Assembly: GCA_003344405.1 (NCBI GenBank)
Contig: NOWV01000166.1
Span: 1 to 64,000, forward strand
Direction of reading: 5' to 3'
DNA length: 64,000 bases
Source: Trichoplax sp. H2
Lineage: Eukaryota
The position numbers and the translations under genes are program-made. The notes beneath the pieces are model-generated. The model saw only the letters and a list, made by a program, of their open reading frames with translations. It made no database searches and was not told the DNA's origin. Shown in pieces: positions 9,118 through 53,820 of this stretch. Position 1 is the first letter of the stretch. Every line of letters starts with the position of its first letter.

Positions 9118-12100
9118 ATGAATTATTTCACAAGGAAAGCTAACATTATTGGTGATGACGAGTTTAGACATTATGCTAAACATCGAGAAGAAGGCTCTAT
9201 ACGAGACGCCGAAACTATCGGATACATAAATACCCCAAATGAAGAATTCTTGTTAAAAAATACAATCGATGGATTAAAATTAGATCAAGCGCAGTATTTT
9301 AATCTGCGTAATCGTCGTTTAATCGAAATAGGAAGCTTATATCTATGCGATAATTTGACCGTTTGTATCCTGGCCAACAATTTTATAAGGACATTTGATG
9401 CTCTTATTTATTGCAACAATTTACAAATGTTGGATGTTCATGGCAATCAGGTAAATAACAACCGTATCTTATGTATTGATATCTTAACCCTATTTTATAT
9501 GTATGCTAGAATAAAAGTGGTACAATTGAATTTGAAGCTTGTATTTTCAGATAAACATGTCAAATTTGATTTATTATGGTAGCCTTTACTACAACTAACG
9601 ATCATGTAGTATTAGTGGCATTAATTTAACTGCGATAACTAATACTTACGTATGTATTTCTTCCAAATTTCATTGCAGATCGTTAATGTGCCATCTGTAG
9701 CTTTCTGGTCTACACTTTCGAAATTATCTGTTATGTTACTACATGATAATGGTATTAGTTCGATGAGTTGTGTAAGAAAAATTGCAAATAGTCCTAATTT
9801 GGCAATTTTGACCTTACATAATACGCCTATAAGTTTAAAGCCACACTACAGACACCACGTTGTCAATAGCATTTTCACTCTCAAAGTGCTTGATAATTAT
9901 GTCATCGCGGATGAAGAAATAATTGAAGGTTGCAAATTTACTGACCAATTTTCAACCAAAAATCAGTTTCTTTATTTAAAGACGGAAAGAAACTTTGATC
10001 AGGTTAGTCGCCAAGTTGATGCTGTCCGGTATAATTAATCTATCCAAACTCTTATTTAATAAATTTCCTACGTTTTTAATTGTTTTCTCAAATAAATGAG
10101 TAGATTACAAACGGTGATGAAGCAATAAAGGAAATCAATCTACTCTTATCAAGGGCTAATAAAATTATGGCTAAGAATTCTCCAATACTTATTATTCAAC
10201 GTTATCTTCGAGGCTATTTAGCACGAAAAATACTAAAAGCATACATCAATCATAAAGATACTTCGTAAGTACTCTTATTACTAAATTACTTTACGGCATT
10301 TTTCATAAGTAATGAGGAATTATGAGGCAGCTGTAGGCCTAACTGAATAAACTAGAATATTAAGAAAAATCTCTTCACCTTAATTTATCTTCTAAAATAT
10401 TAGTAATTATTACCGTACTTACATGACAGGCAAAACTAGTAGCTAAATATCAGATCTTTATTGTTCGTCAGGATTAACATAGAAGATATTATGAACCAAC
10501 ATTTATCGCTGATAGCGGATGCAAACTCATCACAACAAGTATCGACAAATGTGGAACGCCAAATACAGAAAAGTCAATCTGAAAAAAGGAATAAGAATAA
10601 GCGATATCTAGATAAAACATATTCTACGGTAAAACACGGTTCAATGAGAATGGGGAAAATTAAAACAAAAAATGTACTTAAAAAATCACAATCCAAAAAA
10701 TCATTAGGAACGGTTTCTGATAATTATTACGCCACTGCTGAATCTCCAATTTTAATTCGACAATTTTCTCCTGCCTTGTCCACGCGCGACAATCAGATCG
10801 TACATTTAGACGATCCTAACTTCAACTATGATCAAGATTTTAATAACAGGGATGAAAGGTTTCATGGACATGAAGATTACTCTTTACCACCAATTCACGA
10901 TGGTCATGGTATTATAAATTCAATGAATTCTAAACAATCCGAAGCAATATCACCCTTAAAAATTAATGTAGATTTACGAGAATTACAAGCACGGGCTGCA
11001 CAATTTACAGAAGAGGAACGTTCAAGTGCTAGCAAGCAATTTAGACTAAGTAGCAGAGAGCTAAGTGCGATTAAGACCGGTAAAGAATTATTGAGCGGTC
11101 TTGAAAGGACTATGAAAAAAGAGAAGGTTGATAAATCCGATAAAGAACGATATTATAGCCCTCTTTCAGACTATAGAATGTCAGTACCTGAGGAAAGTAG
11201 GCCTCCAATTAGTAAAAATAGTAAATTTAGAAATTATAACGAAACTAATGAGAACGATGAATTATTTACTACCCATTTTCGGTTATCCGGTATGAAGGCT
11301 GCCACTACTGCCGTTGACCCTGTAGAAGAGATGATATTAAATAAGCAAGAAACTGCGAAAGATATGCGAGAAGCAAAGGCAATTTATAGGGAAATCATTC
11401 AAGAAAAACGGAAACCTCCTGTTGTTGAGAAACATATTACCCTTAATGGCCAACAAAGACTATATAAAAAATTATACGAAGCGATGAACTTATCCATTCT
11501 ACGAAGTGTTGATCAAGTCCATAAGGACTGGCATAAATCGGAGAAAGCAATACAGAAAATTGATACAATTGCTAATCGTCGCTTGCTTCATGATGTTCAA
11601 AAGGAAAGAATTCGACAGTTTCAACGCTACAAAGTGATGATAGCGCGTGAAGGTGGAATACAAGATAAAATAATATCAAGTGATGCATTAAAAATGATGG
11701 AAGAAGAAAGAGAAAGGGAAAATCTAAGAGTTCAATTTGCGAGGCAAGAATTAAATGAGAAAACAAAGCAGAGATTTGAGGAGATGGCTTTAAGTACAGA
11801 TTTTAATTGCCAAGCTACTGCAATTGGTCGGGTCATAAGACAATATGACGGTAAAAAGCATCGTACAGAGATGAAAGATAAGAAAGCAGAAGGTGTAAAA
11901 GTAAGTCAGGAAAAAGCAATTGAAAAGCGAGAGATGGTTAACAAATACCTAGAGCATAAGCGAATGGTTCAACGCGCTGTAAATCAAGTAGAAAAGAAAA
12001 AAATTAATGGAAAACTATTAGAGGAAGCTAACGATAGAGTAATGCAGGCGCGAGCTAGAGTAACTTATCTTAAACAGCGCCATCGTGTTGCTAGCAATTT

Positions 12101-12188
12101 TTGCAAATTGCAGAATACGCTGCTAACATCTGAACAACCCCCTAATGCTGTTTCTAATATGAGCATTGCAATCGATGATCGATCATGA
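9118..12188 (+). CDS. LRRIQ3: Leucine-rich repeat and IQ motif-containing protein 3 homolog, 4 coding exons
   Basis: Exons 9118-9450, 9679-10002, 10104-10264, 10472-12188 in frame. LRRs (VCILANNFI, LDVHGNQI, LLHDNGI), LRR cap (PISLKPHYRHHVVNSIFTLKVLDNYVIADEEII) and IQ motif (NSPILIIQRYLRGYLARK) recall vertebrate LRRIQ3. Coiled-coil C-terminus. Confidence 0.88.
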
Positions 12189-13244: not shown

Positions 13245-14734
13245 TTATGAGGCCATTTCCGCTCGAGAGTTGTCTCTTGGTGTTTCTCCATCATTTGATT
13301 TATCGATAGTGTAGTTGTCATCATTTTGTCTCTGTACTTTTGCATTTAAGATAGCAGTGCTAAATAAGCGGCAATATAATTCCAAGGAAGATAAGCTATC
13401 ATCATTACCAGCAATCGGATAGGTGATAAGATTAGGATTACAATCAGTATCGACAATTCCAATACTTGGTATATTAGCCTGTGCAGATTCTCTTATTGCA
13501 TCCATGTTGTATGGGACACTTAAAAAGATTATTAAATCAGGTAAACGAGGTACTGGTAGTAGTTTATGAGCGTTCGTCAGAATACCACCTCGCCATCTTT
13601 GTATAACGAAAAACTCTTGACATTCTCGTGCTGTCCTTTGTACAAGGTGTTGAAACTGCAAGTAGAATAAAATTGAATTTAATAACATTACTCATTCAAT
13701 TTCAACAAAAATCGATGCGAACACGAAGCAGTTGCAACATTTGTATCTTTACTCGTGTACAAATTGTACAGTATAATAGCTGTCGACAGTAATATTGGTA
13801 TAGAAGCCAGCATAAACATTGCGTAAAGTATTTTAGCATGGTTTGACAGCGAAAAAAAGTGTCAAGACTTTATCAACGTTTTTTTACATTCGTAAGGAAA
13901 GTGGAATAGTTTATAGTATTGGTGTGCATGAGAATCATTTATTTCATCGTGAGCGTTATTTTTCTTTACCTGAGGACGACAACAAACGAATAATATCACA
14001 CCTTTGCGATATGCAATATGACTTGTTACATTTAAGGCCAGAAAAAGATGACGATCAGTCTCGTTTAAGTCGATAATATGATTGCCATGTCTATCACCGT
14101 AGATGTATCGCTTCATTAATGGATTCCAAACTCCAGTTTTATGGCCTAAATGTACGCCGGCGTCGAATAACGATTTGATACTGTAAAGCTGACGTACATC
14201 AAAAAAATCTTTGTGGGCTAGTGGATTGATACCTATAACAATAGATATAGATGAGAAGAAATATATAAGAATATGAACCGATATCATTATTAACTATTAC
14301 CAATTTCTATTCTCGACTGTCACAACTACAAGGCTGATTTGCAGAAGAGAATGTACGTATGCCCACACGCTTACACGTTAACAGTTAACAACTTCACTAC
14401 GTATTATTACAGCTACACATGTTACAGCTAGAGCTCAACAATCCCTTATTACTACAAACTACTGACGAATAGTCATAAAAGAAATAAAATGATTACGATA
14501 AGATTCTGGAGGAGAAAGTCCCTGACGATGTCAGAATCCATTTTTGCAAGCATCAAGGCAAATGAAGTTACCTGAGGGCTTACTTTCTGCCTTATCCAGT
14601 TTCCATGTAGTAGTAGAAAAGAGACATGATTGCCTATATAGCGTATTTCTACATGTCCACTGATTAGAATGGCAAACAAATGAGTTCCATTTCTGCAGCA
14701 CTTGTCTAATCTTGGTACTCTTGTGCAACGCCAT
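13245..14734 (-). CDS. MRPS2: Mitochondrial ribosomal protein S2 (uS2m), 3 coding exons
   Basis: Exons 14572-14734, 13970-14232, 13245-13655. uS2 motifs LFDAGVHLGHK, WNPLMKRYIYG, RWRGGILTN, RLPDLIIF, IPSIGIVDTDCNPNLITYPIAGNDDS. Basic N-terminal presequence. Confidence 0.95.
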
Positions 14735-14841
14735 GATTCTATTTACTCTATACCATTTAGAGGACCTCAATTTCCTTCAACTTTATGCAAGCAACAGCAT
14801 GGCTTACGCTGCGGCCAACGTGATCAAGGGGCAGCACACAC

Positions 14842-15195
14842 TACAGACCCTCATAGAGACCCTTATGGAGACCCTTATAGAGACCCTTATAGAGACCCTT
14901 ATAGAGACCCTTATAGAGACCCTTATAGAGATCCTTATAGAGACCCTTATAGAGACCCTTATAGAGACCCTTATAGAGACCCTTATAGAGACCCTNNNNN
15001 NNNNNNNNNNNNNNNGGGCAGCACACACTACAGACCCTCATAGAGACCCTTATGGAGACCCTTATAGAGACCCTTATAGAGACCCTTATAGAGACCCTTA
15101 TAGAGACCCTTATAGAGACCCTTATAGAGACCCTTATAGAGACCCTTATAGAGACCCTTATAGAGACCCTTATAGAGACCCTACGAGGGTCTCTA
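14842..15195. mobile_element. hAT-like MITE whose body is a 12-bp minisatellite (TAGAGACCCTTA)n; locus duplicated across the N gap
   Basis: Termini TACAGACCCT...AGGGTCTCTA are an inverted repeat. The 8-bp direct repeat GCACACAC flanks it (14834-14841 or 15021-15028, and 15196-15203). The complete copy at 15029-15195 has 12 full 12-mers plus a terminal 10-mer hairpin arm. Confidence 0.75.
14996..15015. other. Assembly gap (N run) with duplicated flanks
   Basis: N run. GGGCAGCACACACTACAGACCCTCATAG appears both before the array (about 14829) and right after the gap (15016). Confidence 0.97.
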
Positions 15196-15686
15196 GCACA
15201 CACTGCGCAGTACTGTACTGCACGGCTTGACAGTTGACACCCATCATACTACAGTGTACAGTAGGTACAGTACAAGACAGAGGGCTGTACGGTACACTGT
15301 ACACTGTAGCCGATAGTACCAGTACAGTACCAGTATAGTACTAGTACGGTACTAGTAATCAGGATCACGTGGGCCAACCGATATGGTACTAGACGTTTGT
15401 ATGGACAGTAGTATCTACCCTAGTGGAACACCTGGTAACGCGAACTCTGACTGTGATAGTGATCAAGTGCAAGTAAAAGCGAGTGTTGGACGAGCAATAA
15501 ATTCGCAAATTTCAAATCTCTCAAGCGAGCGACTTTAGATCTCAATCCTGCCAATTAATCTTGCTCATCCTACTGCAATTGATCTCATAAGAAGCAATAT
15601 CTTTATTCTTGTGAATCTGCTCGCATAGACTGTCTATCTTGAAGTACTACAGTATAGTTTGTATTAACAACAAGACGAAGAGCAAA

Positions 15687-16415
15687 ATGGAGGCAATCTT
15701 TCATACTTTTGTCACTTCTTATTTTCTCAGCGAAGAATGTTATAAAGATCTTTTAATCAATTGGAATATAACCAATATTAGCTGTCTTAAGATGCTAATT
15801 AGTAAATCTTTAGGTTTTGCTATTGTAGTTGGGGCTGCTGTTGTAAAATTTCCTCAAATTATCAAGGTCTATCGTGCTGGTAGTGTTGAGGGTTTATCAC
15901 TGCCGTCGTTGATCATGGAGTTGCTTGCAGTAGTGGTTAACGTGGCGTATAATGTTGTCAAAGGATTTCCTTTTAGTACATGGGGTGAAGGAGCCTTTCT
16001 TATGATTCAAACATCGATTCAAACTATGCAAATTTTATATTACCGCAAGCAACGTATACCTTTCTACTTGTTTCTACCTGTTCTTGCAGCTTTCTCCTAC
16101 TTCTTAATCTCTGATTATTGTGGGCTTCCCTTGCTTAGCAAGTTAACCTGGGCATCGATGCCAACTATTGCTGCTAGTAAGCTAACGCAAATAGGCACTA
16201 ACATTTATCATGGCTCTACTGGGCAGCTTTCGATGGTTACCATAGTTTTAATATTTGGTGGCTCCTTGGGCAGAGTATTTACAACTATTCAAGAAACAGC
16301 CGATCCCATCTTATTGACAACTTACATAGTGACATCTTCCTTAAATGGTGTCCTAGTAATGCAAATTATCTATTACTTTAATAATGTAATTGATAAAACT
16401 AAGAAGAAATTGTAG
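15687..16415 (+). CDS. MPDU1: Mannose-P-dolichol utilization defect 1 (Lec35/SL15, PQ-loop protein), intronless CDS
   Basis: ECY...CLKMLISKSLGFAIVVGAAVVKFPQIIK, GSVEGLS, GFPFSTWGE, GSTGQLS, GSLGRVFTTIQETAD are typical of MPDU1. First ATG is 15687; the ORF track start at 15639 is a TTG. Confidence 0.95.
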   Translation: MEAIFHTFVTSYFLSEECYKDLLINWNITNISCLKMLISKSLGFAIVVGAAVVKFPQIIKVYRAGSVEGLSLPSLIMELLAVVVNVAYNVVKGFPFSTWGEGAFLMIQTSIQTMQILYYRKQRIPFYLFLPVLAAFSYFLISDYCGLPLLSKLTWASMPTIAASKLTQIGTNIYHGSTGQLSMVTIVLIFGGSLGRVFTTIQETADPILLTTYIVTSSLNGVLVMQIIYYFNNVIDKTKKKL

Positions 16416-30549: not shown

Positions 30550-33500
30550 ATGGAATTGGACACTATTGAAGAATTTCGTAGAAACGGCAAATCAGTCATT
30601 GATTTCATTGCCGATTATTTCACTACCTTGCACATGGATGAAGTTCCTCCTTTATCAGAAGTTCCACCAGGCTATTTGCGCTCTTATATTCCGAATGAGG
30701 CACCTGAAGAAGGCGAAGACTGGCAAACTATCATGGAAGATGTAGAGGAAGCTATCCTACCGGGGGTACTGTTAAATATTGTATTCTAAGATCTTAAACT
30801 ATGTAAATGGAGTTATTATACACTCTGATAGAAAGTCCACCATTATCATAATGCTTTCGTTTCCAGTTTTTATTTTTTCCGTTTTTCTCTTGTACTAGAT
30901 TGAGCGCATTGAACTAGGGGTTTTATATTATCGCACCGCAGATTTTAAATAATAGATTATACTTCGTTCTTATATATTTCAGTTTTCGATCCTGTATCAG
31001 TTCTAGATATGTATAGCTTACCTTTAGTGATTAGCTATACCTACTTGCTTATGACGTCCCGTAATATGCTTAACTTCCGCAGTAGTGGTAGTTTTATAGC
31101 TCTCAGTTTCTCGCTATAAAATTTGTAAAATATGGTATAAACCTTATTCTAATAGTAGAAAGCTCTTACAACCGCAGCTGTAGTAATTTTACCAAATTAA
31201 TGATATATATTTAATTTTGTTATTTGATTATGATGTTTATTAATACTGTATATCAAAGCAACCTAAAACTAGAATATCCTACTTCCGTACAACTAATTAG
31301 AAAAGAATTAACAATCTTGCACTTTTCATCGCCGTGTTACTAAATCGTTGATGACATTGCTTTGAAAACATCATATTTATCCGACCCTGACGGAGTTCGC
31401 TAAAAGTAAGTTGTACTTATCTATTTATGATCACAGGTTACCCATTGGAACAGTCGTCACTTTCATGCTTACTTCCCACATGGCCTGAGTTATCAGGCAA
31501 TGCTAGCAGAGCTACTAGGGACAGCTTTTGGTATGGTTGGATTTACTTGGGTACGGCAGTAACGCTATATATTAATTTTTACCGTACAAACTAAACTTAA
31601 AAAATGCGCTATATGACAGTGTATAGCTCTTTCGGTCAATATTATTAGACCCTAAAATAATAAGTGTCTATGATATTAGATGTGTAACTTCAGCACAGAG
31701 CATCTCAACACAAATTGAGCTACTAAACATTTTTAAGACATTTATAATCTCAGTACCCCTTTTCTTCACAGAAAGCTGGACCTGTGTCAACTGAACTTGA
31801 AACTATAGTCACTAATTGGCTAGGTAATATTGAAAAAGAACTACAGCACATAAATTGTATTGATTAATGCATATACAAAAAGTAACCAGAGATGGAGTGA
31901 CCGCTACGATAAGATTAAATTTGTACTCTATGTTTATTGTTGTAGTATGTTCGAATTTAATCATGAGCACTTTTGTTACGACAATTACCCTCAGTTACAT
32001 CTTCATTTTTTCTTCTAGGTGAACTAATTAATTTACCAGACGAATATTTGACTTACAGTAGCACACATTGTAAGGGTGGTGGTGTATTATTGGTAAGAAT
32101 ACTGTTTAGATACAAATTATGGTAATCATAGGAGATATTACATGATTTAAATAATAATATGTAACTACTCAAATAACTTCTATGAAATTTTTATGCAAAA
32201 TATCATGCAACGTAAGGATAGAAAAAATATAAATACAATTTGTAGCCTTGAATTTGATAAGATTTTTCATGTTTTATCTAGAGCTCAGCATCAGATTGCT
32301 TGATGTCGGCACTAATTGCTGCAAGGTATAAAAGGATTGAGACAATGAGGGCTAAACACTACCGTGGTTTTGATTCCAGTAAACTGTTGGGGAAATTTAT
32401 TGTGTATACTTCAGAACAAGTATGTACGATAGTTCAATATTTTTCCAATTGCTAAGGGCAGTAATAGATGCTAGACAACACAGTCTACATAGCAATAACT
32501 ATACTTGCGTATGTTTTCCCCACTATGCATAAATTTATATTGATTTTGGCTTGTACGATTGCAATATCAAGATTAACGTCTCAGTAGAGAAAGTATGTAT
32601 GGCAATGAAAATTAAAGTCAAAAAGCTAGAAACTGATGATTCCTTTGCTGTCCGAGGAGAAGTCCTTGATAAAGCAATCGAGGTAGTATGAAATGCGTAC
32701 TATAATTAAGTTTTATAGACATTCATAGAAGTTTGTTCTAGAGTCGTGTCAGTTGGATTGTACAAATTTCCTGCAATACTTGCTTCCAACTACTAGTGTA
32801 TTATAGTCATTATGAAGTACACCGCACTGTTTACTTGCTATTAAAGCTGTACCTGTATGTATTATGTTGCATTTTTAGGAAGATAAAGAAGAAGGCTTAA
32901 TTCCTTTGGCGGTACGCAATATTATTGTAGATTTACAGATTCATGATTAAAGCTATAATCAGTATAATTAGAAAGAAACTACAATTAAGCGATAAGTTAC
33001 TCATTCTTGTCAACCTTTCCATGAATCAGTCATCTTTTGTGCTCTTTTAAAGAACGTTCACCTAAATGATTCACTAACTTAGGAAATTTTCCAATTCTCA
33101 TTTTTGATACCAATAGGTTTGCGCTACAATGGGAACAACAGACTGTTGCGCTATTGATAACTTAGCTGAAATAGGACCAATCTGTAAGAGCTGATCATAT
33201 ATTAGTATATATTGTTAAATTGCTTTATCTACGATCGATAGGGATTAATGTTCGCCTGTTCAATCGTTGTTAGGCCAACGAGAACACGTTTGGCTACATG
33301 TAGATGCAGCTTATGCTGGCGGTGCTTTAGTTTGCCCGGAATATCACCACTGGTTGGATGGCGTGGAAGTAAGTTGAAATGGTTACTATTAGTTATAGGG
33401 CAAAAATACTACCTTATCGCATATTTACATATAGAAAATTGTACCAATGTCTATTCACTTCTAATGTCAATATATTTTCTCTATTTATTTACTTTCCTTT

Positions 33501-35146
33501 TCGGTATAGTACACCGATTCCTTTTGTGTCAGCCCACAAAAATTAATGTTAAACACATATGGTTCTGCCCTCTGGTAATCATTTTTTTAGTTTGAGATAT
33601 GTAGGAGTGGTTTTTATGACTTTATTTAGAAATTTTGAATTAGCTTTGGCTAAAGAAACTGAGAATGTACATTCTTGTATAATAATATATTCATAGCAAA
33701 TTTATTTCTTTTTAATATAGGGTAAAGAATCGTCTCATATTAAATCACGCTGTAAATCAGTTTGAAGAACCAATGTACTTACATGGCAGAAGAGGAAGTA
33801 GCATTTCTGGTGAATGGCATCTAAGAGCTTGTAGCTTCAGCGCAAAATACCGACAAAATATTGAACAATGTGAATGTAGGTTTTACGAAAGCAATTAGTG
33901 CTGTATTTTATTGAGCTATTTTTTCCTGTCTACGCTATATAATATGCATTTGTAACTCGGTTTCTTCACTTTTAACACATATCCTCTATACATTAATTCA
34001 CAATTCGGCTAAGCAAGGCAGGATAACAAACTTTAAGGTATTGAATTAGTGATATGTCATGAGTTTATTCCCCTTTACTAATATTTTAAAGTAAAGCTAG
34101 ATTCAACTCTTAAACACTCCTTAATTAATAAATTATATGTTAGGATTGGCAAGTTCCATTAAGTCGAAGGTTCTCTTCGCTTAATCTCTGGATAGTATTA
34201 CGAAGTTATGGTCGTACTGGATTGCAAGAACATGTACGCAAGGTAATATTTTAGCCTCGTAGGGGTATAGCTACATCAACATAAAATTTTATTCCTTTAC
34301 ACGGAAGGTAGTTTAAAAAAATTGTGTGCTTGATATTTCTATTTAAAAAGTAATTGTTTCTTATATTAAAAAATAACAAAATTAACACAATATGTGATTT
34401 TGGGATATTTAACATATAGCATGTTCGACTTGCTGGGATGTTTGCTGATTTTGTTCGAATGGATGCTAGATTTGAGCTAGCAGCTAAGCCAACTCTTGGT
34501 TTAGTATGCTTTCGGCTAAAGGTATGTATTACTAAGAAAATCACAACACAACTTCTTCGCAATCTCATAGCAATACTAAAGTATGCTTTTACAGTACCTG
34601 TTACTGTACAGTAATTAGCACAATATCGGTGAAATATCGTAATCATAAGTTAATACTTACCGTAGCTACCACGTATATAATCCCATAGTATCAGCGTAAT
34701 ATAGCCATCCTACAGAAGTTATTTTAAAAATTGTAACTAGCCATAAAAAAAATCTTAAATGATACTTGAAAGTATAACGTTCAATAAATCATCGGTTTAT
34801 TGGCTAGTCTTAATTTAAAGTTTGGTATTTAAAATTTAACAAATCGTTGCTGCTATAAAATGTGGCCCTTTAGAAACATATTCGTTTTAAATTTATGTGG
34901 TCTTTATAAGAATCTTATTTTAATTTTTTTGAATATTTACCTTTACAGGGGGCGAGTAGCTTAAATGAGGCATTTCTGGATTCAGTCAATAATACTGGTA
35001 AGCTCCATTTGACGCCAACAACATTGAGAGGAAAATCGGCTATTCGATTTTGCATCTGTTCCAACATTACCAATGACGCCGATGTTCGTTTCGCTTGGCA
35101 AGTTATTGAAGAAGTAGTAGAAGAGTATGCTGACGACTTAATGTAA
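30550..35146 (+). CDS. DDC: Group II PLP-dependent aromatic amino-acid decarboxylase family protein (DDC/TDC/HDC-like; orthology unresolved), 15 coding exons, about 490 aa
   Basis: Exons 30550-30765, 31437-31550, 31772-31823, 32019-32092, 32282-32419, 32572-32682, 32879-32911, 33117-33183, 33274-33368, 33510-33574, 33721-33809, 34018-34037, 34144-34242, 34420-34521, 34949-35146 sum to 1473 nt in frame. Motifs [47 protein letters not shown] (PLP Lys), [18 protein letters not shown]. Confidence 0.93.
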
Positions 35147-36962: not shown

Positions 36963-37496
36963 TTACAAAAGTCCTTTACGCTTAGCAATATACTTTTGAT
37001 GGTAGTCTTCCGCGTTATAAAAGGTAGAAGAAGGAATGATGTCAGTCACAGCCTTAATACCTTTCTTGATAAGGGCATCTTTGGTTTGATGAGCGAGTTT
37101 TTCTTGTTCTTTGTTGGCGTAGAATATAACAGATCGATATTGTCTACCCACATCGGGGCCTTGACGATTTACCGTGGTAGGATCGTGGGCCTTCCAGAAT
37201 ACGTCCAACAGTTCTTTATAAGTTATTTGCTCGGGATTGAAGTCTATTTTAACGACTTCAGCATGGCCAGTCTTGTCAGCACAGATTTGTTCATACGTGG
37301 GATTGACTGTGTCACCACCAGCGTAGCCGACGGTAGTTTCTTGGACACCTTTTAGTGTCCGAAACTTTTCTTCTACACCCCAAAAGCAACCAGCACCAAA
37401 CACAGCTGTTGAAGTCATTTTCCTGAGTAAAATTCGAGAGATAATTGAATTGGATTGCAATCGGTAAGAATTCAAATAGGCTAATGACCGTAACAT
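36963..37496 (-). CDS. MSRA: Peptide methionine sulfoxide reductase A, intronless, with putative mitochondrial presequence
   Basis: GCFWG active site, VGYAGG, NPTY, TGHAEVV, HDPT, RQGPDVGRQYRS, AEDYHQKY. A 26-aa Arg/Ser/Leu-rich, acid-free extension precedes a second Met. Confidence 0.97.
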   Translation of the reverse strand: MLRSLAYLNSYRLQSNSIISRILLRKMTSTAVFGAGCFWGVEEKFRTLKGVQETTVGYAGGDTVNPTYEQICADKTGHAEVVKIDFNPEQITYKELLDVFWKAHDPTTVNRQGPDVGRQYRSVIFYANKEQEKLAHQTKDALIKKGIKAVTDIIPSSTFYNAEDYHQKYIAKRKGLL

Positions 37497-38039
37497 AATC
37501 GAATTGAATATTATACAATATACTTTTCTATATCATGAAAGGGCAGGATCGCTAAATCCGGCAATGGTACAATAGTACCAGCTACCGGCAGGGATTGTCA
37601 TTAGGTCATTGGCTGTACCAGTCGTTGGTTGTGCTCTGTCATCATTGCGAATGCAAAATCACCATGAGTCGGTCCATCCGACCCACTCAACACTGTTGTG
37701 TTCGAACCTTTCTCAGGTCTTACAGTACGTACATTAAAATAGTAGCGTTCTGTCGCTTCTTGGACAGAGAGACTTACAGTATGCAGTAGACCTGAATGTA
37801 CTACATAAACAGGACAACTAGCTGAATCAATCACAAAAGTGAATCTCAAAATAATAATAATCTCCAGTAATAATCTCAAATAATTTTATATCATTGCACT
37901 AGTCTAACGACTCTAACCTCGCTCCGTCGTTCGTCATAATTGAACGTACTATCAAGCTGGACTAACTGTATACTTTTGACTGTACTATTTGAACAGTCAC
38001 TCATTCGATCAGTTGCATTGATCTTGGCATTCATAGTCA

Positions 38040-40127: not shown

Positions 40128-40800
40128 ACTGTACTGTACTGTACAGTACAGTACACTAGTACAGTACAGTACAGAACGACTAACTCTACAGTATGCCTAG
40201 GATCTGGGTCCATTTTTTCAACGGTTTTTTATCAACTGGTTTCTGTCAGCGCAGCATACTGTACTGTACAGTACAGTACAGAAGTACAGATCCACATTGT
40301 ACAGTACTGTACTGTATACATATACACATCTATCTACTGTATACGTATACATATACATACAGTATATAGATATATGTATACAGTATAGCATACAGTGCTG
40401 TACTGTACTGTATACAGTACAGTATACTGTACATATATATATATATATATATGTACATACTGTATACATATACATATACATACAGTATACATACTGTGTA
40501 CATTTTTTCAACGGTTTTTATCAACTAGTTTCTGTCAGTCTGTGCAGCAGAGTGTACAGTACAGTATACTGTAGTACTGTACATGACTACTGTACATTGT
40601 ACTGTAATGTGTTGTACTGTACAGGGTACAGTACAGTACTGTACAGTACATTTTTTCAACGGTTTTTTATCAACTGGTTTCTGTCACTAGACTCACTACT
40701 GTACTGTACAGTACAGTACACTGTACAGTACACTACAGTACCACATTGTACTGTACTGTACAACACAGGACAGTACTGTACAGTACAGTACTGACAGGAC
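40128..40800. repeat. Low-complexity TACTG/CAGTA and TATAC tract containing three 37-38 bp conserved direct repeats
   Basis: CATTTTTTCAACGGTTTTT(T)ATCAACT(G/A)GTTTCTGTCA at 40211-40248, 40501-40537 and 40649-40686, embedded in ACTGT/ACAGT simple repeats. Confidence 0.9.
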
Positions 40801-41235: not shown

Positions 41236-44200
41236 ATGTTAAAAACAAATCAACCATCCTATTTGAAAACTACCTATCCTTCAAAAAATTATGTAACAGG
41301 TAAGAGCCACCACAACATACAGTAGTGTACTTGGTAGACGTTAACCATCTTCTACGCGTACAATCGAGTAGATCGATTGACTGCGTGAATTTGGAATAAG
41401 TATACTGTCTCTTTTTTATTCTTGCATTATAATCTGCTAGACCTAAAAGATGTAATTATCCTACTATAAAGCAGATCGTAATCGATTGATAATCCTTACC
41501 TCAATACAATTAATGTATTTTGTTCCATATTATTGACTAAAGATGTAGACAGAATATTACGCAAAGTTGATAAGGTCAAAATCAAGGTAAATTTACTCCA
41601 ATTCTACGTAGAGTTCTAAATGTGATCGCTTGTATGCAGTATATATACATTACAGTTTTATTTTTGCCTCTTTATACTATCTTTGGTAGTTAAGTGTATC
41701 TCAATTTCATTCAACTTTACAACATAAATAAGTATAGATCGTACACGCTATAGTCACTGTACTGCAATGTTATCATACTGTACCATTACTATGCGTATAC
41801 TAAGCCAAAAGTAGGACTTCTATACACTCTATATCCATTCAGAATGCCATTGTTACATCGCAATCTCTAAATTAATGATTTCCAACGATAGCCAATGAAT
41901 AATAATTTCGTTTGATTAATGGTACTAGCTCCGTGAAACGCAGGAACAGTTACAAACGGCATCAAGTAGTGACAATCAAGAAATGAATATGGCCACTGCT
42001 ATTCACTGGAGGAAAGATGACCAATTTAAGCAAACAATAAACGCAAATGAAAATCCAATGAAAGTAGTCATTCAGCGTGTACCTTCGTATACATTAAATG
42101 AAGTCAACACATCTAAGCGTCAAAAATTGAATAGTGATTACAAAGTGACTGCTGACGAAGCCAATCGTGCCAAAGTACGATTCGCAGATAGCCACAAGCC
42201 AACAACCGACAGTAGTTTAACCAAAAATGCTGAGGATGGCAATCAAACATCGACACAAGAATGCAAAAATATAGAAGATAGAATGGCAGATATCTCTTCA
42301 TCTCGGACAATGAAAGCCGGTAGTAAAATTATGAATGAAATAGAATCTATGACCAAAGCTAGAAGTAAAGCTACACATGGTAGTGATAGAAAAGCATTAG
42401 AAAATGATGAGATAAATGACTGGAAGACAAAAGGTATAGTAGGATGAATACACGTATAGTTATACGTACCATTATGATTTTTTAGTTAAGCTACCGTAAA
42501 ATGTGCATGCTATAGCAATAAAGGTAACTATTACCAAGGGTTATAATTTTGAATACAAGTTATTTGTATCAATGACTTGCGGATTTATATAACATGATAA
42601 GGCCATGCAGTAAATAATGCAGGAAGAAAAATCTCGCCGGCTTTCAATGTGGAGACTTGCTCTATTTCGAAGAGGAAGATAGCAACTGCTCCCGCTCCTC
42701 CAAACTATAAGGGTTTTAATCTTTTCGAGGAGTACACTACAACGATAAAAGAGAAAGAACCTGTTATAGGTATTTCATTGTTAAAGTGTAAAATGCCTGT
42801 CTTACTCATATTTCTAATATGGGAATATAATTATTATTATTATTTTTATTGTCTTACAGTTAAAAGGATTAGCCAAAGAGTACGAAATAATGTGGGTAAT
42901 CAAATGAACTTGCGCTTCAATAAGCCCACAACGACTACAACCCAGAATAATAAAAAGCCAGTAATAATCTCAAAAGGTAAAAAGACTATTCGAAAAATCC
43001 AGCGCTACGCCGAGAAAGAAGTCAATCTAAAGTACAAGCCCCCCGTCACTCAAATAACGCCATATTCTTGGCGTGAGGGCAAAGAAGCCATTCGGAACGC
43101 TTTTAAAGAGACGAAATCATCTCAACCTACAAGTAAATCCCCTCCACCACAGCAGGATTACTCTAGAACTTCATCATCTGCTTCCTCTTCATCAACTTAT
43201 TCAGCAATGAGAGCAAGTACTCCTACGTCGTCAAAAGGAGTTAGTGATGCTAACTATAAAAGTGATTTAGAAAAAAATGAGGAGGATCAAAGTAGTAGTA
43301 AAGAAAAAGAGGACTCGATATATAACGATCGCTTTGAAGATACGTCACCAACTGAGAGTGATGACGATAATACCGAATATCGAGGAATAGCCGATCAAAT
43401 ATTACGCGAATTAAAAGGTTTAATTGCAATTGTCACTGAATACAATTTATATCGCAAACATTTTCTTTATGTCTAATATGTGGAATCATGCATTCTTTCA
43501 ATTATCTTAGAAGATACCACAAATAACCAACAGTCTATCAATAAATCGTCAAAGAATACTGCTCGGAAACGTAAAGCGGCTCTAACAAAGACTCAAGGTA
43601 AAGTACTGCAATGGAATGAAGTGCAAAGCATTTTTATACTGTACTTATCATTTGTAAATTTTTAAAATAACCATTTGAAATCATTGTAATCCTCCTTGCA
43701 ATGGTTAAAATATGATTTATATAACTGATGATGATGACATATTGTACCTCCTAATTCGTTGAATTGTTAATAAGCCGTAGTATTAACTTGACACTGCAAA
43801 GCTGTCTCTCTTAACAATTTTGTCACTAGAATGGCTTATCCGAGCCCCAAAGAAACATAACTTATATTTCTTCAAATAAGCTAAAACTAAAGCGATTCTA
43901 ATTGCAGATATTATTTTTATTTTAGTTTGTAAATAAAATAACCGGCAAGAAATTTATAGTGTGGGTAATTTACTTAACATAACTCTAATTTTTTTACTTT
44001 TAAAAGAACATGCAAAACCGTTGCCAAAGCAGCGTCATTATGATCAGAAAGAAGTACAAGAGTATCAAAAGAAAAAAAACAATTTACGAAATAAGCAACG
44101 TCTTGAACAGAGAAAAAAAGAAAAGCTTGATAACGATGAGAAGCGGCGGCGGTTGCAGGTTAATCTTTTATTTATAGTATTTGCTAAAATAATTGCAAAG

Positions 44201-47200: not shown

Positions 47201-50200
47201 TATCAAGCACGAACTATCAGAAAAGCGCTTGTCTCCTGCAGATCTCGAACGACGTCTTCATGCGGAATTACAATATTTAGAATCTATCGATGAGTCAGTT
47301 CGTCAGCTAAGCCAAGTAGAAAAAGCTCGAGCCATTTCATTTGCTCAACAAGAAACCGTTTCACTAGCTCAAATTCTTAAGGTAAAATTTTTTTTATGCA
47401 TATAATATTGATTAGAGAAATTTTTCTCCGTAGTTTTAACTGCATTTGACTTTCTAGGCAAGGCAGTACGAACATATGCAAGAAATGGATAAATATAAGT
47501 CTGCTGCGGAAAGAGACAACTTGGAGGTGCAAAAGCGATTTGACGAAGTATGCATTAGTTAACATTATACTAGACACTTTGTACAGTACGAGCATAAATC
47601 ATACTGTGTTTGTATTATTAGGCAAAAGATGTTTTAAAGTCGGCTTCTGAATTAACTAGCCAGAAGCTTGCCGAAATTAAGTCGGAAGCTTCAGAGTCGG
47701 TTCGAAGTGCGGCTCAAAGGTTAAAAGAGGTTTGTGATGATATAATTGTCGCTATAAGATTATATTCAACGTGCATATATTAAATTTTGATCTGTTTAGG
47801 TGGAATCCGCCATTTCTCAAACAGCAATAAATTTTACACAGCAGTTGCAATCGGTATATCAACATGTTATAATTGCCACGAAGAGATACTCCTTTGAAAG
47901 CAAACTTAACAGAATTAAATGTCTTTTTACAGGCCCATTCTGCTACAGTAGCCAAGCTAGCGGATACTGTTGCAGATCACATTGTGAATGCCAAGAGTTT
48001 GGCTATTGAAACAGCTAGTAATGCCGCAACTGCCACTATTCAGTCAGTACGAAACAAGGATGTTCGCGATCTTAGAAAAGACGGTGGCGATAGTTATAAA
48101 ATATCTGAAACTTCATCAAATGATACCGTCAGTAATGGATCCTATTCCTCTAAATTTTCATCACCTATATCGAATAAGCAATCAGAGGTTGCTGAGGCCA
48201 GCAAGGCATCGAATTCATCATTCTCAAAATCCAATGTTGAAAATAGTGTCGTGTCTGAACATTTATCAAACGATTCCGGCCAAAATCGCTCAAGTAAAAC
48301 TTCAATTACTGATTCGAGTGCTAGGTAATAATGCATTAATTTAATGATTTCATTGCAATATATTTGTTGTCGAAGGGATATCGAGATTGTGATAACTCTT
48401 GATGTGTAGTTGAAATCATAGGAATTAATATATGCTGTTTTGTAATGTACAGCTTCGCCAAAGAATTATCTGTTACCGCTTCATCCGAAAAAGATATAAG
48501 CGAAAACATCGATGGTAGAGCATGTTACTTAAACTATAAGTTAGTTTTAATTTACTCTTGACTCATATTTATATTTGTATACTTTTTTACTGAATAGTGA
48601 GGTCATCTGGTTCGCATGATTATACTTCACGATTTGAAGACCTTTCTTCATCATCGACTATACAAGAAACAGCGGACGCAGACAAGGTATTATGATTGTC
48701 TTATATTTTCAATTTAGATATGTTTATTATAATATTAATTATCCAATTCTTGTTCGTTCATTTATGGAACAAGTCCTTTCATGAAGTTTTGCCATCCGTT
48801 AGCCATCGTCGACGCTATAGCTCAGAAAATGGTCAATCTAATATCGACATTTCTGACACTGCAAGCATCTCATATAGTTCGGTACGATGATATACGAGGC
48901 TAATTACTGTGTAAATTTATAAATTTGATACAAGATTTTTGTGATATAGGAGGATGCATCCCCTGCTGCGACTTTTAATGAACCTTCATCCAATCAAGGA
49001 AAATCTCTTTTTGTTAAAAAAAATTTATTTGGTAAATTTACAAAATATATGGTACAGCAATATATGAAGGAAGAAATGGTGCGCGCTAAACATCAAGCCG
49101 CTCTACTAAATCTGCGTGAGAAAGTAGTGCAAGAAAAAACAGAAGCCGAAATAGCGTGGCTAGAACATCTGAAAAAGTACTATTATAAATCTAGCAGGAA
49201 ATAATGGAAATAATATATATCGAGATGATATTTCTTATAACTTAGTTAACTTTTCTTGCTTGTCGTATATTATTCGCAACAGAAAATTTCGTAGTAAGGG
49301 TGAAGACGACAAAATGCCTATGTTGCGTAAGCGTCAAAGGAGTCTTTTACTACATCTCCAGGCTGAACAGGTTAGGTCCAGTGAATAAGTGCAAGTATAC
49401 AGTTTAACACGATCCTGATAAGAACTCTACAAATCTTTAGGCTGAAATTAAGCGACTCAAGGCTGCCAATCGAGCTGCACAAGAAGAGCGAAAATTAATT
49501 ATGTATCAACAAAAGGAAATTGATCGTATTAGAAAAACAACTCAAGCATATCGTGGTAAATTATCTAAGCATAAATCAAAAGATGATAAGAACGCATCAG
49601 TATTAGATCAAAAACTGGTATGTATAAAAGCGGTTTATAGCTTTCCGGTATAATCATTTGTAAAAAATTAAGGGCGATTAAGATTCTTAAGACTGCAATA
49701 TTTAAAATTTAATAGACTGGTAGTGATATTAGCGCAGAAGATGAGGTCATGGATTCAAGGCTACCTGCGGGATTGTCCACGTCTCCTGATGTCGTTTCTG
49801 TCGCATCGAAAAGTGATGACTCAACTCCAACAGAAACTACTGTTATGAAAAAATTGAAAAATATGCAGAAACACTTTTCGGAAAGGTAAATGCCAAGAAC
49901 TTTTCCTTATGTGTGAATAATAAACTTACATTCTCTTTCTGATTTATCTGCTGTAGATTTTTAACTCCCCGTGAGCAAAAGTTACAGCGTCGTCGCAAAG
50001 AAGCTGATGCATTATTAGATAAGCAAAAGCGTCTGCTAACATGGAAAACTGATTTGGATGAAGAGCAGGGTGCAATTAATCTTACATTAGATAAAGTCGC
50101 TGAACTCGGAACTAGCCAGCTAATAGAATCAACATCTAAAGGAGCAAAGATAGGAACAGCCAAAAAGTTTTCTACCGATGAATTCAATGATCATGATAGT

Positions 50201-53200
50201 TCAAATCTAGCAGAACACGACGCTATCAAAAATACAACAAAACAAAGTCCTAACATATCACTCAATGATGAGTATAATCATATTACAAGTTCGAGTAATG
50301 ATAGTGTAGAAGTGACACCAAGCCAATCTAAATTAGATAGCTCCGACTTAGGTGACTCTTACACTCGGAGTCAGAACTCAGACTCTATTGCTGAGGAAAT
50401 TTCAAACGAAAGTAAATCGATATCTACAACAAACGAGGGTACTCAAGAAAATGATGAAATGTTTGGAGATTTGCATTCTATTAACTCTTTAGCTAGTGTT
50501 CCACTGGAGAACGAATCATCTCAGAAAGAGATTAACTCCGGAAAAGCTTCGAATTCTATCCCGTCAGAATATGCTAATAGCACGTTTGAATCTTCTGAAC
50601 CAAGTACGTTGCATACGGCCTCTGCCTCTAGTCAGGCAATACAGGAAAGCCTCGACGAGATTTCAGCTTCAAAAAAATTTAGTGATAAGCAATATTCAAG
50701 CGCAGCTTTGGCGAACAAATCAGCCAACAGTTATTCTTCTTACTCAAATACTTTCGTTAGCAGTGAAGACGAAGCTTCTGCTAACGAGTCTCAAACGACA
50801 ACAGAAACTGCGTCTGATCTCAGCGATATTGAGGGAAGAATACGAAAATTAGCTACGGAATTACAGCTACGTCGACAAATTGCAAAAGATTTAATTAAAG
50901 AGAAAAAAAAATTAGAGAAAGATAGACTAAGGAAGCAGGAAGAACAACTTCGCGCAGAATTAAATAAAGTAGAGACCTTTATTAGCAAAGTTAAGTCAGA
51001 AATTTCGGATAAATCTCAGGAATTTGCACATTCAAGTGTAGTTAAACCCCCCACAAATGCAGCGTTGGAGCAGAAATTGGTCAATCTTAATAAGAGTCTC
51101 AGTGAACGTAAAAAGGCGTCAAAAGTTATATCTAATGTTTCTGTACCGATTCAGACACAACTTCAATCTAGTGAAGAGAACAGTTATTCGTCGATTCAGT
51201 CTCATAATAATATGTCCAAGAAATCTGGTAATGGTAAGTAATCCTTCAGCAATGTAAATAATTCTGTTGATACTCTTATTAACCGAAATTTAAACTATTT
51301 TTCTGATTAATAGAGAATACAGGATCAAGCACGCAAAAATCAGTATCTCCTCTGTCTATTGAGGATAATTTAGAAGCTAGTTTATCTGATGTTGATATTA
51401 AATCAAATTTAATAATAAATGCTAAAAGTAATGATTCGGAAGATAAGCATGTCGTTGCCGAAATGCCAAGAAATGATCAACCACAAGATAATGAACTCGA
51501 AAAAGCGCTTTCTGAAGTTGGTAATAGCGATATTACAAGATCATCAAGTGGGACAGTTACTCCTCATTCTGATGTCAATTCAAGCGTTCCCTCTTCCATA
51601 GATAATATTCAGCACGACATGATTATAATTGAGAGGCATACAGAAGATGACAGTAGCGGTAAAATGTCTAAAACCTCGGCTAGAAAGAGTCAGGACAACA
51701 TTTCGGTATCATCAAGTAGGACTGTAACTCCTGTATTCGATGATAATAAGGATGAAGAGCACGATTACGTTGATTACTCAGACGATTGGGATGGATCTAC
51801 TGAAAATGCTACGCAACAACGGGGAGACGACAAGGACTTGTCCATTCTGGAAGATGAAGACATTTCGAAAGCCTCCAGTAATAAAAACGTCGTCAAACCT
51901 TCTGTGGACGAAATCTTAGAAGATGTATCAGATCGTTTTATAGCAGATTCTGCTGATACATCCGTAGAAGAAGACATAAAATCACAGGCATCCAATATCG
52001 ATGTTTCTTCGGCTTCAACTATTTCTGCTAATAGTCCCATTGGAGGTAATATAGAATTAAATGATCCACAAGATTCTTTCGCCTCCAATACTTACTCTAG
52101 TAGCAAAGCTTCAACAAATCTTAAGAGTAATAGGAGTACTTCACGCGTCGAAAGTATTTTAAACGATGCTCAAGGTGCAGAGAATGAGAAGAGTAATGAA
52201 ATATCGCCTAAACCTGATGCAGATGACTGGCACGAACCACCTATAGATTCAGAAAAATTAGATACATCTATATCTGAAGATATTTCAGAATCTATCGAAG
52301 ACGATACTTCCAATAAATCATCAGTAAGCATCGAAAAGGAAACGTTACGATACGGTGAGGACTTCCCCGCAGACGAAACCCCTGCTAATGTAATGCATAC
52401 AACATCTGATGTCGTTGGTAGTCTTTCTGATAAAAGTATTGATTCAGATGTGAAACAAGAAAGATCTGAATCGGCCTTGTCGCATAGTGCAGCTAGTGAT
52501 GAAGAAAACTCCTTAGAAAGTAATCGAAACTTAGATCCAATGATATCTAGGACACCTGATCATTCATCTCACGATGAGATTGATACTGAAATGGGGGATC
52601 TTTCTAATAAAGATTATCTTTCAGATAGCAATAAAGATAAAGAATTAGTAGATCCTTCACAAGATTTAGCAAGTAAGGAGGCAGAATATTCAGACACAAA
52701 CTATTTATCTGACGCCTTTTCTGGCATTTCTTCATCCGATATTGGTGAAAAGGATGATCAAACAATTGCTACTACGTCACGCGAATCATACCAATGGAAT
52801 AGTCTTGAAACTGTTACGACGAACATGACGGTAAATTTATTAGACGATGCATTGCTTGCAGTATTTAAGGTACGATTGTCGAAGGAAAGCCGTACCAAAG
52901 CACAGGAATCTGCCTCGCATGATCAAGAAGTAATGAGTGCTGAAAAACCGAATGTCTTACCGTTTCAATCCCAGACCGCTGCAATAGAAGATCTGAAAGG
53001 TGATGATATACCTTCCTTACTCAACTTATCTGATCTACCGGAACCTTCAGTACCTCGTAGTAAATTAAACGACTTGAAAAACTTTGATATGGAAGTAGAT
53101 GAGTTATACCATGATTTTGAGAATAACAGCCAAAATTATCAGGATTTCATCCACGAAGTCTTACCTGAAGATGAACCGACAGTTACACCTGAAACCAATC

Positions 53201-53820
53201 AGGAGGTAATTCAGTATTTTGTCCCGCATACGGAAGAGTACATTAAAGAAATTGTCTCTACAGCTACTGACCAAATTATTAGCCATCATAACTTGAATGG
53301 CGCTGATGTTGAAATAAAATGCCCGGAAAATTTTAACTATAATGAAACTGACATTAAGGCTGATACCGAGTTTGAAAAATCTAGCCTTCGTTCATATCAT
53401 GTGATGATTTTTGACTTAGTCAAAGAAATCCTAGATGAATATTATGATTACAATAAAAATGCAAATGTCAATTTACCTTTGTGGATGAAGCCTAAACGCC
53501 TTCGGTTACCAGCCCGTCTGCGTGGTACTCCTTTGAATGCAAGTAATAAAACTATAAAAGAACATACAATTGGCTACGTAGTAGAACTCCTTAAACTTAA
53601 AACTGGAAAAGGTTCAGTTTCAAAGAAAAATTTAAAAAAAGACTTGGTGGATTCTATATTAGCACAAGAATTGGCCGAAGAGGAACCTGACTGGATTGAT
53701 TACGACAAGGATGAAACGTGCGTAAAAATGCAAGTAGCCGACTCTATACTGTCGAGCTTGCTAGAAGAAACATCTTCCATATTTAAAAATACTAAATGCA
53801 TGACCGATGTATACGAGTAG
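41236..53820 (+). CDS. CEP350: Centrosome-associated protein 350 homolog, multi-exon, start codon tentative
   Basis: CEP350-like blocks occur in order: RKIATAPAPPNYKGFN, ITPYSWREG, RHYDQKEVQEY, RLSPADLERRLHAELQYLESIDESVRQLSQVE...AQQETVSLAQILK, FTKYMVQQYMKEE...KGEDDKMPMLRKRQR, SDIEGRIRKL, and C-terminal VDSILAQELAEEEPDWIDYDKDETCVKMQVADSI (DUF4378-type). First exons 41236-41299, 41542-41586 and 41929 onward splice in frame. Confidence 0.9.

Follow-up and report, generated by a model that had tools for sequence, protein, structure and literature searches.

The window considered here, a 64,000-nucleotide stretch of the placozoan Trichoplax sp. H2 (positions 1 to 64,000 of contig NOWV01000166.1, GenBank assembly GCA_003344405.1), has a G+C content of 31-40% and a eukaryotic character. 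It contains one gene of the family of aromatic L-amino acid decarboxylases (AADC), the homologue of TRIADDRAFT_21756 of Trichoplax adhaerens, in which the active-site histidine of the family (His192 of DDC) is replaced by asparagine. The same asparagine is found in the DHPAA synthases (DHPAAS) of insects, and the Trichoplax protein may likewise form an aromatic aldehyde in a substantial share of its turnovers.

The gene is readily identified. Exon 1 (30550-30765) is 100% identical to that of T. adhaerens TRIADDRAFT_21756 (XP_002109307; UniRef B3RNK8, 487 aa), and the view of a preliminary description, made from the DNA letters, that the source was a non-bilaterian animal is thereby confirmed. 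The cluster of XP_002109307 at 90% identity consists of this H1 protein and two others: the 512-aa RDD38668 (P0121), which comes from Trichoplax sp. H2, and P0122, a fragment of 61 residues with another source and four differences, all of them C-terminal and conservative. RDD38668 maps exactly to the window DNA as 15 exons and 14 introns, all of them GT-AG, with the frame open throughout (Table 1). Only this one gene was found when the 64-kb window was searched by tblastn with six homologues, with neither a second copy nor an alternative exon 6, and a full-length search showed no second placozoan cluster among the best 120 of 5842 matches.

The predicted product belongs to the aromatic amino acid decarboxylase family and is an intact group II pyridoxal 5'-phosphate (PLP) enzyme of the dimeric type. 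Its match to the PF00282 profile (E 1.7e-122; 409 bits, cut-off 27) extends over residues 40-447 and covers profile positions 1-375 of 375. The best sequence matches in the PDB are the DDC chains 9dui and 1js3 (E 2.6e-140 to 2.7e-140); HDC (1.6e-126) and DHPAAS 6jrl (5.1e-110) score lower. An AlphaFold2 (AF2) model has a mean predicted local distance difference test score (pLDDT) of 90.0 and a predicted template modelling score (pTM) of 0.89, and pLDDT falls below 50 solely at residues 346-361. Residue equivalences were taken from a HMMER alignment to pig DDC (1js3) and counted along the chain: Asn200 corresponds to His192, Lys311 to Lys303, Tyr341 to Tyr332, and HAYFP to Tyr79-Phe80-Pro81. 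The equivalents of Lys303, Asp271, Thr246 and Ser149 are present as Lys311, Asp279, Thr253 and Ser156, and those of Trp71 and Phe103 are also retained. Residue frequencies below refer to a census alignment of 262 of the 390 collected proteins (rows P0002-P0271 of 380-1400 aa; P0001, a duplicate of the query, was left out).

Table 1. Features of the Trichoplax AADC gene, in window coordinates
Feature	Position	Strand	Basis
Whole AADC coding span, TRIADDRAFT_21756 homologue	30550..35146	+	H2-type model, 15 exons, 512 aa + stop
Codons for Tyr84-Phe85-Pro86-His87 (Tyr79-Phe80 kept; His at Thr82 position)	31470..31481	+	Alignment
Exon 5, ending ...VYTSEQ, donor CAA/GTATGT	32282..32419	+	Window sequence and RDD38668 mapping
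Exon 6, starting INVSVEK, acceptor ...ATATCAAG/ATT	32572..32682	+	Sole AAG acceptor of the gene
Asn200 codon AAC, His192 position (catalytic small loop)	32575..32577	+	Alignment to pig DDC 1js3
Asp279, equivalent of Asp271, partner of PLP pyridine nitrogen, kept	33303..33305	+	Alignment
SPQKL (family: NPHKW); Ser/Gln/Leu at Asn300/His302/Trp304 positions	33531..33545	+	Alignment
PLP-binding Lys311, equivalent of Lys303, kept	33540..33542	+	Alignment
Tyr341, codon TAC, equivalent of catalytic-loop Tyr332 (PMYL), kept	33776..33778	+	Residue count along 1js3
16-base microexon, (R)ITNFK; aligns to DDC ITDYR (residues 343-347)	34022..34037	+	In H2 model, not in T. adhaerens v1 model
Ser387, codon AGT, Gly354 position (substrate pocket)	34162..34164	+	Alignment

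The exon 5/6 junction

The asparagine is encoded by the second codon of exon 6, and its reading depends on the preceding splice. Exon 5 ends (32402-32425) with gtg tat act tca gaa caa/gtatgt and exon 6 begins (32572-32592) with atatcaag/att aac gtc tca gta gag aaa, which gives YTSEQ/INVSVEK in the protein. XP_002109307 reads YTSEQINVSVEK across the junction, and RDD38668, separately assembled and annotated, is identical there. The window DNA and both public gene models therefore agree on the Asn (AAC, 32575-32577) first read in the preliminary description. A sequencing error can be set aside, since two independent assemblies (H1 and H2) both give Asn.

The same description gave AAG at 32571 as the only phase-0 acceptor found to keep the frame open, but it is not the sole open choice. 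When every pair of GT/GC donor and AG acceptor leaving exons 5-6 open was enumerated, 36 pairs were obtained for this intron. One of them, a phase-1 combination of donor 32423/32424 with the CAG acceptor 32584/32585, produces YTSEQVLEKV, three residues shorter. An acceptor that restores a histidine, which the description had also considered, is not among them: 0 of the 36 pairs place His at the slot before S-V-E-K.

It is very improbable that the gene model is wrong about the Asn and that the true mRNA is spliced otherwise, for example by this phase-1 pair, in which no Asn occurs. The annotated acceptor does speak against the asparagine, for AAG is unusual (the sole non-YAG among the 14 introns) and its pyrimidine tract is weak, while the CAG lies only 13 bases downstream with its open phase-1 pairing and three other introns of the gene have GTAC-type donors. 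Transcript-derived support from placozoan fragments did not appear either: with P0121 residues 150-400 as query, none of the 119 short-protein matches (E <= 1e-5, of 194 candidates) was a placozoan fragment spanning the junction region, all 119 being fragments of other organisms with at most 68% identity. Exon 5 alone, a very short query, had 0 matches to PDB sequences. However, the phase-1 splice would remove three residues from a stretch (8 residues to either side) that is free of indels in 255 of the 262 homologues, and it would delete the position that stacks on the cofactor. The annotated pair is the only one of the 36 that preserves the family spacing, and it restores the family S-V-E-K motif in frame. 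There is no AG between 32492 and the annotated AAG, so that from any branch point onwards this AAG would be the first one met. The same junction was chosen by two annotation efforts, the AF2 model puts the region in a canonical strand-turn-helix with pLDDT of ~95, and a histidine is beyond the reach of any open pair.

Residues around the cofactor and the catalytic loop

Histidine is close to universal at the His192 position. The column has His in 247 of the 262 rows, Asn in nine (query included), a gap in four, and Arg and Lys in one each. The other eight Asn rows belong to an ant, a beetle and a stick insect (DHPAA-synthase-like), to Steinernema hermaphroditum, and to four further homologues. 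The proposal of an aldehyde-synthase switch outside insects is thus borne out as far as the Trichoplax Asn goes, but Trichoplax is not the first such case: EgPAAS of the Myrtaceae has been characterised, and the nematode and the four further homologues carry Asn as well.

The remaining determinants are of the decarboxylase type, as the preliminary description had read them. Alignment to 1js3 retains the DDC-type Tyr79-Phe80 pair (HAYFP), and the catalytic-loop Tyr332 (PMYL) is kept both by the count along 1js3, where Tyr332 is the Tyr of DPVYLKH, and in the realigned column. That column was built by local realignment of 253 loop segments, since the global MAFFT alignment misplaced the Trichoplax loop; it has Tyr in 226 segments, Phe in 8, a gap in 7 and other residues in 12, and Trichoplax is among those with Tyr. 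At the Gly354 position, Gly occurs in 13/13 labelled DDC-type rows and Ser in 15/15 labelled TDC-type rows. Trichoplax has Ser.

The His at the Thr82 position (31479-31481) occupies a substrate-pocket site and is shared by 2/262 rows. In the O2-using PLP enzyme MppP, a signature His is reported roughly at the Thr82 place, with Asp where decarboxylases have Asn300 (PMC6411801; published statements here and below are those in the available parts of each source). To link the Trichoplax His at Thr82 and Ser at Asn300 to oxygen chemistry would be pure speculation.

The segment that follows the catalytic loop is modelled differently in the two public proteins, which disagree over exons 11-13 (33721-34242). 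The T. adhaerens v1 protein is spliced 33830/34154, with loss of the conserved ITDYRHWQ-type motif, and that model looks wrong from the sequence. The H2 model includes the 34022-34037 microexon (ITNFK) and starts exon 13 at 34144 (DWQVPL), in agreement with pig DDC residues 343-353, and it has 25 residues inserted behind the catalytic loop. Other open options that are shorter and retain the microexon also exist, e.g., donor 33809 with acceptor 34018. The Phe of ITNFK was considered as the Tyr332 equivalent, which would make it a second aldehyde-synthase switch, and was rejected, since it aligns to Tyr346 of 1js3. At that position (DYRHW; window 34032-34034), Phe is found in Trichoplax and 40/262 homologues and Leu in 24/262, the carriers of Phe or Leu including annelid, mollusc, hemichordate and crinoid proteins.

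Origin of the asparagine and its predicted effect

The phylogenetic position was examined with 63 rows and 513 columns in a quick IQ-TREE search (LG+C20 posterior mean site frequency model, PMSF). Trichoplax falls within a group of 50 rows that takes in every animal-labelled row, with an SH-like approximate likelihood ratio (SH-aLRT) support of 98 against a 13-row group that includes P0166, the tyrosine decarboxylase of Fagus (beech). It lies at the base of the animal group, without a resolved position relative to the DDC-type and TDC/HDC-type groups; with a quick tree search and long branches, its exact place among the animal rows is uncertain. A separate clade without Trichoplax is formed by the five insect-type Asn rows, and the Asn protein of S. 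hermaphroditum (P0235) pairs with a His-bearing relative, P0267. Asn at the His192 position requires at least three changes on this tree. With a separate insect-type clade and at least three Asn changes, an independent origin of the Trichoplax Asn relative to that of insect DHPAA synthase is supported, in line with the convergence suspected earlier. A grouping of Trichoplax with the Asn-bearing P0148 (SH-aLRT 88) was distrusted, both branches being long and the identity 38%.

Two of the other Asn proteins have combinations of their own. In P0235 the His192 position is Asn and the Tyr346 position is Leu, and its relative P0267 has His at the former; P0148 combines Phe79-Tyr80 with Asn192. Judging from these residues, both may be further aldehyde-synthase candidates outside insects.

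The role of the residue is known from several enzymes. Once CO2 has been lost, His192 helps to protonate the C-alpha carbanion; when this residue is missing, the carbanion reacts with O2, with formation of aldehyde, NH3 and H2O2 (10.1101/404970, PMC6411801). For example, in Drosophila DDC the H192N exchange was reported to lower decarboxylase Vmax 11-fold, from 3357 to 285 nmol/min/mg, and to raise aldehyde synthase from <1% of decarboxylase activity to 163, as compared with 270 for wild-type DHPAA synthase (PMC6411801). The reverse exchange in Bombyx DHPAAS, N192H, took the aldehyde synthase share from ~95% to 22%, and the effect of the Phe79-Tyr80 pair is smaller; Tyr79-Phe80 occurs in some DHPAAS of Lepidoptera and ants (PMC6494836). 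A crystal structure of DHPAAS has confirmed Asn192 as the catalytic residue (PMC12078590). In plants, PsTyDC H205N is bifunctional and still forms tyramine, and EgPAAS, with a natural His-to-Asn exchange, is an exclusive phenylacetaldehyde synthase (10.1101/404970). Gly at 353/354 has been tied to preference for L-DOPA (or indole) and Ser to phenolic substrates (PMC6494836 and further literature).

In the proposed scheme, the aromatic L-amino acid would form an external aldimine with PLP and lose CO2 as usual. With Asn in place of His, protonation of the C-alpha carbanion would be slow, and a large share of turnovers would trap O2 to give arylacetaldehyde, NH3 and H2O2 (decarboxylation-dependent oxidative deamination). 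With Tyr332 retained, some amine would probably still be formed. The protein is thus read as a bifunctional enzyme whose aldehyde-synthase share is substantial (a third or more) to dominant, with a probability of roughly 0.55. Bifunctionality is expected because the Trichoplax arrangement (Asn192, Tyr332 and Tyr79-Phe80) is that of engineered DDC H192N. Tyr or Phe is more likely as substrate than L-DOPA because of the Ser at the Gly354 position, present in 15/15 TDC-type and 0/13 DDC-type rows, and because tyrosine hydroxylase is reportedly missing from placozoans; the L-DOPA chemistry of the insect enzyme, which the preliminary description took as its model, is therefore unlikely here. Products from Tyr or Phe (perhaps Trp) would be 4-hydroxyphenylacetaldehyde or phenylacetaldehyde, not 3,4-dihydroxyphenylacetaldehyde (DOPAL).

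Several observations weigh against a large aldehyde share, and most of them fit an enzyme that is essentially still a decarboxylase, making tyramine, tryptamine and phenethylamine with a trace of aldehyde. Protonation of the carbanion would then fall to Tyr332, acting alone or by way of another residue or a water molecule. Both Tyr332 and Tyr79-Phe80 are kept and are of decarboxylase type; Drosophila DDC H192N retains 285 nmol/min/mg, so that its amine output still exceeds its aldehyde output of 163 (PMC6411801), and PsTyDC H205N likewise goes on forming tyramine. Tyramine, tryptamine and phenethylamine act on placozoan G-protein-coupled receptors (GPCRs) with half-maximal effective concentrations (EC50) in the nanomolar range, which speaks for some endogenous source of amine; the receptors are tuned to trace amines, and AADC is named as the single synthesis enzyme (10.1101/2025.04.18.649542). 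Nevertheless this explanation is unlikely. All active natural Asn enzymes that have been characterised in the available literature (insect DHPAAS and EgPAAS) made aldehyde, the His-to-Asn exchange alone cost Drosophila DDC the 11-fold loss of decarboxylation given above, and His is conserved in 247/262 homologues. The available text of the preprint contains neither 'mass spectrometry' nor 'HPLC', and no amine measurement in the animal is reported there.

Other unfavourable points concern the protein as a whole. Its terminal branch is 1.37 long, against a median of 0.53, and it has rare cofactor-adjacent residues: Ile 191, Val 193 and His 82 occur in 2/262 rows each and Gln 302 in 3/262, with Ser 300 (14/262) and Leu 304 (12/262) less rare. 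With such a branch and such residues on the cofactor side, analogies based on one residue may not be transferable. The protein could even be catalytically dead, or have turned to other PLP chemistry or a non-enzymatic role, with Asn200 as one sign of relaxed or redirected selection; the long end branch, the rare residues at five cofactor- or substrate-pocket positions, and the 25-residue insertion of the H2 model (pLDDT < 50) would all fit. Natural plant enzymes with the same Asn, MmAAS and LiAAS, had little or no activity in yeast (10.1101/404970). Loss or redirection of function is nonetheless improbable, for the equivalents of Lys303, Asp271, Thr246, Ser149, Trp71, Phe103 and Tyr332 are all retained, the AF2 model is confident outside the loop, the frame is open through 15 exons, and the few C-terminal differences in P0122 are all conservative. 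The bifunctional enzyme with a large aldehyde share remains the preferred reading.

The gene bears on a live dispute about monoamine signalling before bilaterians. A 2023 paper argued that the monoamine system was a bilaterian innovation (PMC10244343). In a 2025 preprint, Trichoplax GPCRs were deorphanised for tyramine, tryptamine and phenethylamine, a single placozoan AADC homologue was given as the source of the three amines, and signalling was concluded to be endogenous (10.1101/2025.04.18.649542). Tyrosine and tryptophan hydroxylases are reportedly absent from placozoans (10.1101/2025.04.18.649542, PMC10244343), as is monoamine oxidase (PMC10244343). In sponges, trace amines are made by other PLP decarboxylases, and the sponge enzymes have been used for rescue of C. 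elegans tdc-1 and bas-1 mutants (10.64898/2026.02.14.704838). The window gene is most probably the AADC enzyme of the 2025 preprint, whose available text gives no accession. Two Trichoplax 'DDC_like' genes (Tad_31153 and Tad_60611), enriched in fiber cells, have been described in PMC11452686, as against the one AADC of the preprint; neither source, in its available text, names TRIADDRAFT_21756.

If the two are the same gene, its chemistry is the weak link in the argument for endogenous amines. The earlier caution against inferring amine synthesis from the gene has good grounds, and the preprint makes it more topical. An aldehyde-forming enzyme would give placozoans a direct route to arylacetaldehydes, monoamine oxidase being reportedly absent, and an alternative source of amine is conceivable, given that sponges use other PLP decarboxylases. 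Whichever product an assay showed, amine or aldehyde, it would limit how chemical signalling before nervous systems can be modelled. No publication came up in a full-text search that combined Trichoplax with 'acetaldehyde synthase', or in a literature search with the accessions of the gene, and the word 'aldehyde' is absent from the available text of four papers on early monoamine evolution (including 10.1101/2025.04.18.649542, PMC10244343 and 10.64898/2026.02.14.704838). No earlier report of a small-loop Asn enzyme of the aldehyde-synthase type in non-bilaterian animals was found in these searches.

A bolder version, in which the sole AADC reported from placozoans works exclusively as an O2-using aromatic aldehyde synthase and is fixed throughout Placozoa, is unlikely. 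On that view placozoans could not make tyramine, tryptamine and phenethylamine by way of AADC, and the receptor ligands would come from food, bacteria, or PDXDC-type PLP decarboxylases as in sponges. Arylacetaldehydes and H2O2 would be put to some other use, e.g., to defend the animal, to digest food at its feeding surface, or to cross-link proteins. The His at Thr82, Ile-Asn-Val and SPQKL would be adaptations to oxygen chemistry, and the enzyme would be the third independent invention of its type among animals and plants, and the earliest-branching.

Other long open frames in the window were searched against Pfam. A single open frame of 189 aa at 36963-37532 (-) matches peptide methionine sulfoxide reductase (PF01625, E 2.5e-61) and lies tail to tail with the AADC gene, ~1.8 kb downstream. 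Long open frames at 15615-16415 (+) and 51307-53820 (+) match PQ-loop repeats (PF04193, E 2.3e-22) and DUF4378 (PF14309, E 1.2e-09), respectively. A Pfam search with five others (10443-12188, 14664-15230, 40201-40794, 42601-43476 and 49943-51241) gave no match.

Comparison with known aldehyde synthases and decarboxylases

Insect DHPAAS (PDB 6jrl) has the same fold and family as the Trichoplax protein, the same Asn at the His192 position, on which aldehyde-synthase activity chiefly depends, and Tyr332. In contrast, the Trichoplax protein lies outside the insect Asn clade and does not derive from the insect DDC duplication. It has Tyr79-Phe80 where insects have Phe79-Tyr80 or Tyr79-Tyr80 (a pair that is not strict in DHPAAS), and Ser387 where they have Gly at 353/354, the position linked to L-DOPA. 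To our knowledge, placozoans also have no cuticle to cross-link, unlike the insects in which DHPAAS occurs.

EgPAAS is similar in having a natural His-to-Asn exchange in what is otherwise a decarboxylase, large-loop Tyr included, and in using a non-catechol substrate, Phe, as would be expected here. It differs in belonging to the plant TyDC clade, apart from the animal group (the confirmed plant row in the tree is Fagus P0166). The engineered enzymes Drosophila DDC H192N and PsTyDC H205N also combine Asn192 with a decarboxylase-type Tyr332 (and DDC with Tyr79-Phe80), and both are bifunctional. They are laboratory single mutants, however, whereas the Trichoplax protein has had time for more adaptive or degenerative changes.

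The closest relatives overall are the animal DDC and TDC proteins (pig 1js3, human 3rbf, arthropod TDC), which are the best matches, with 45-49% identity among the matches listed. With them it has in common all of the core PLP residues as well as Tyr79-Phe80 and Tyr332, and Ser at the Gly354 position is as in the TDC type. Unlike them, the Trichoplax protein has Ile-Asn-Val for Ala-His-Ser, SPQKL for NPHKW, His at Thr82, and an insertion after the catalytic loop. The plant Tyr-to-Phe class (AtPAAS; 4HPAAS 6eeq) is set apart by its large loop, where Trichoplax keeps the Tyr. With its Asn and intact PLP machinery, the Trichoplax protein fits, on sequence alone, the class of aromatic acetaldehyde synthases with a His-to-Asn exchange in the small loop.

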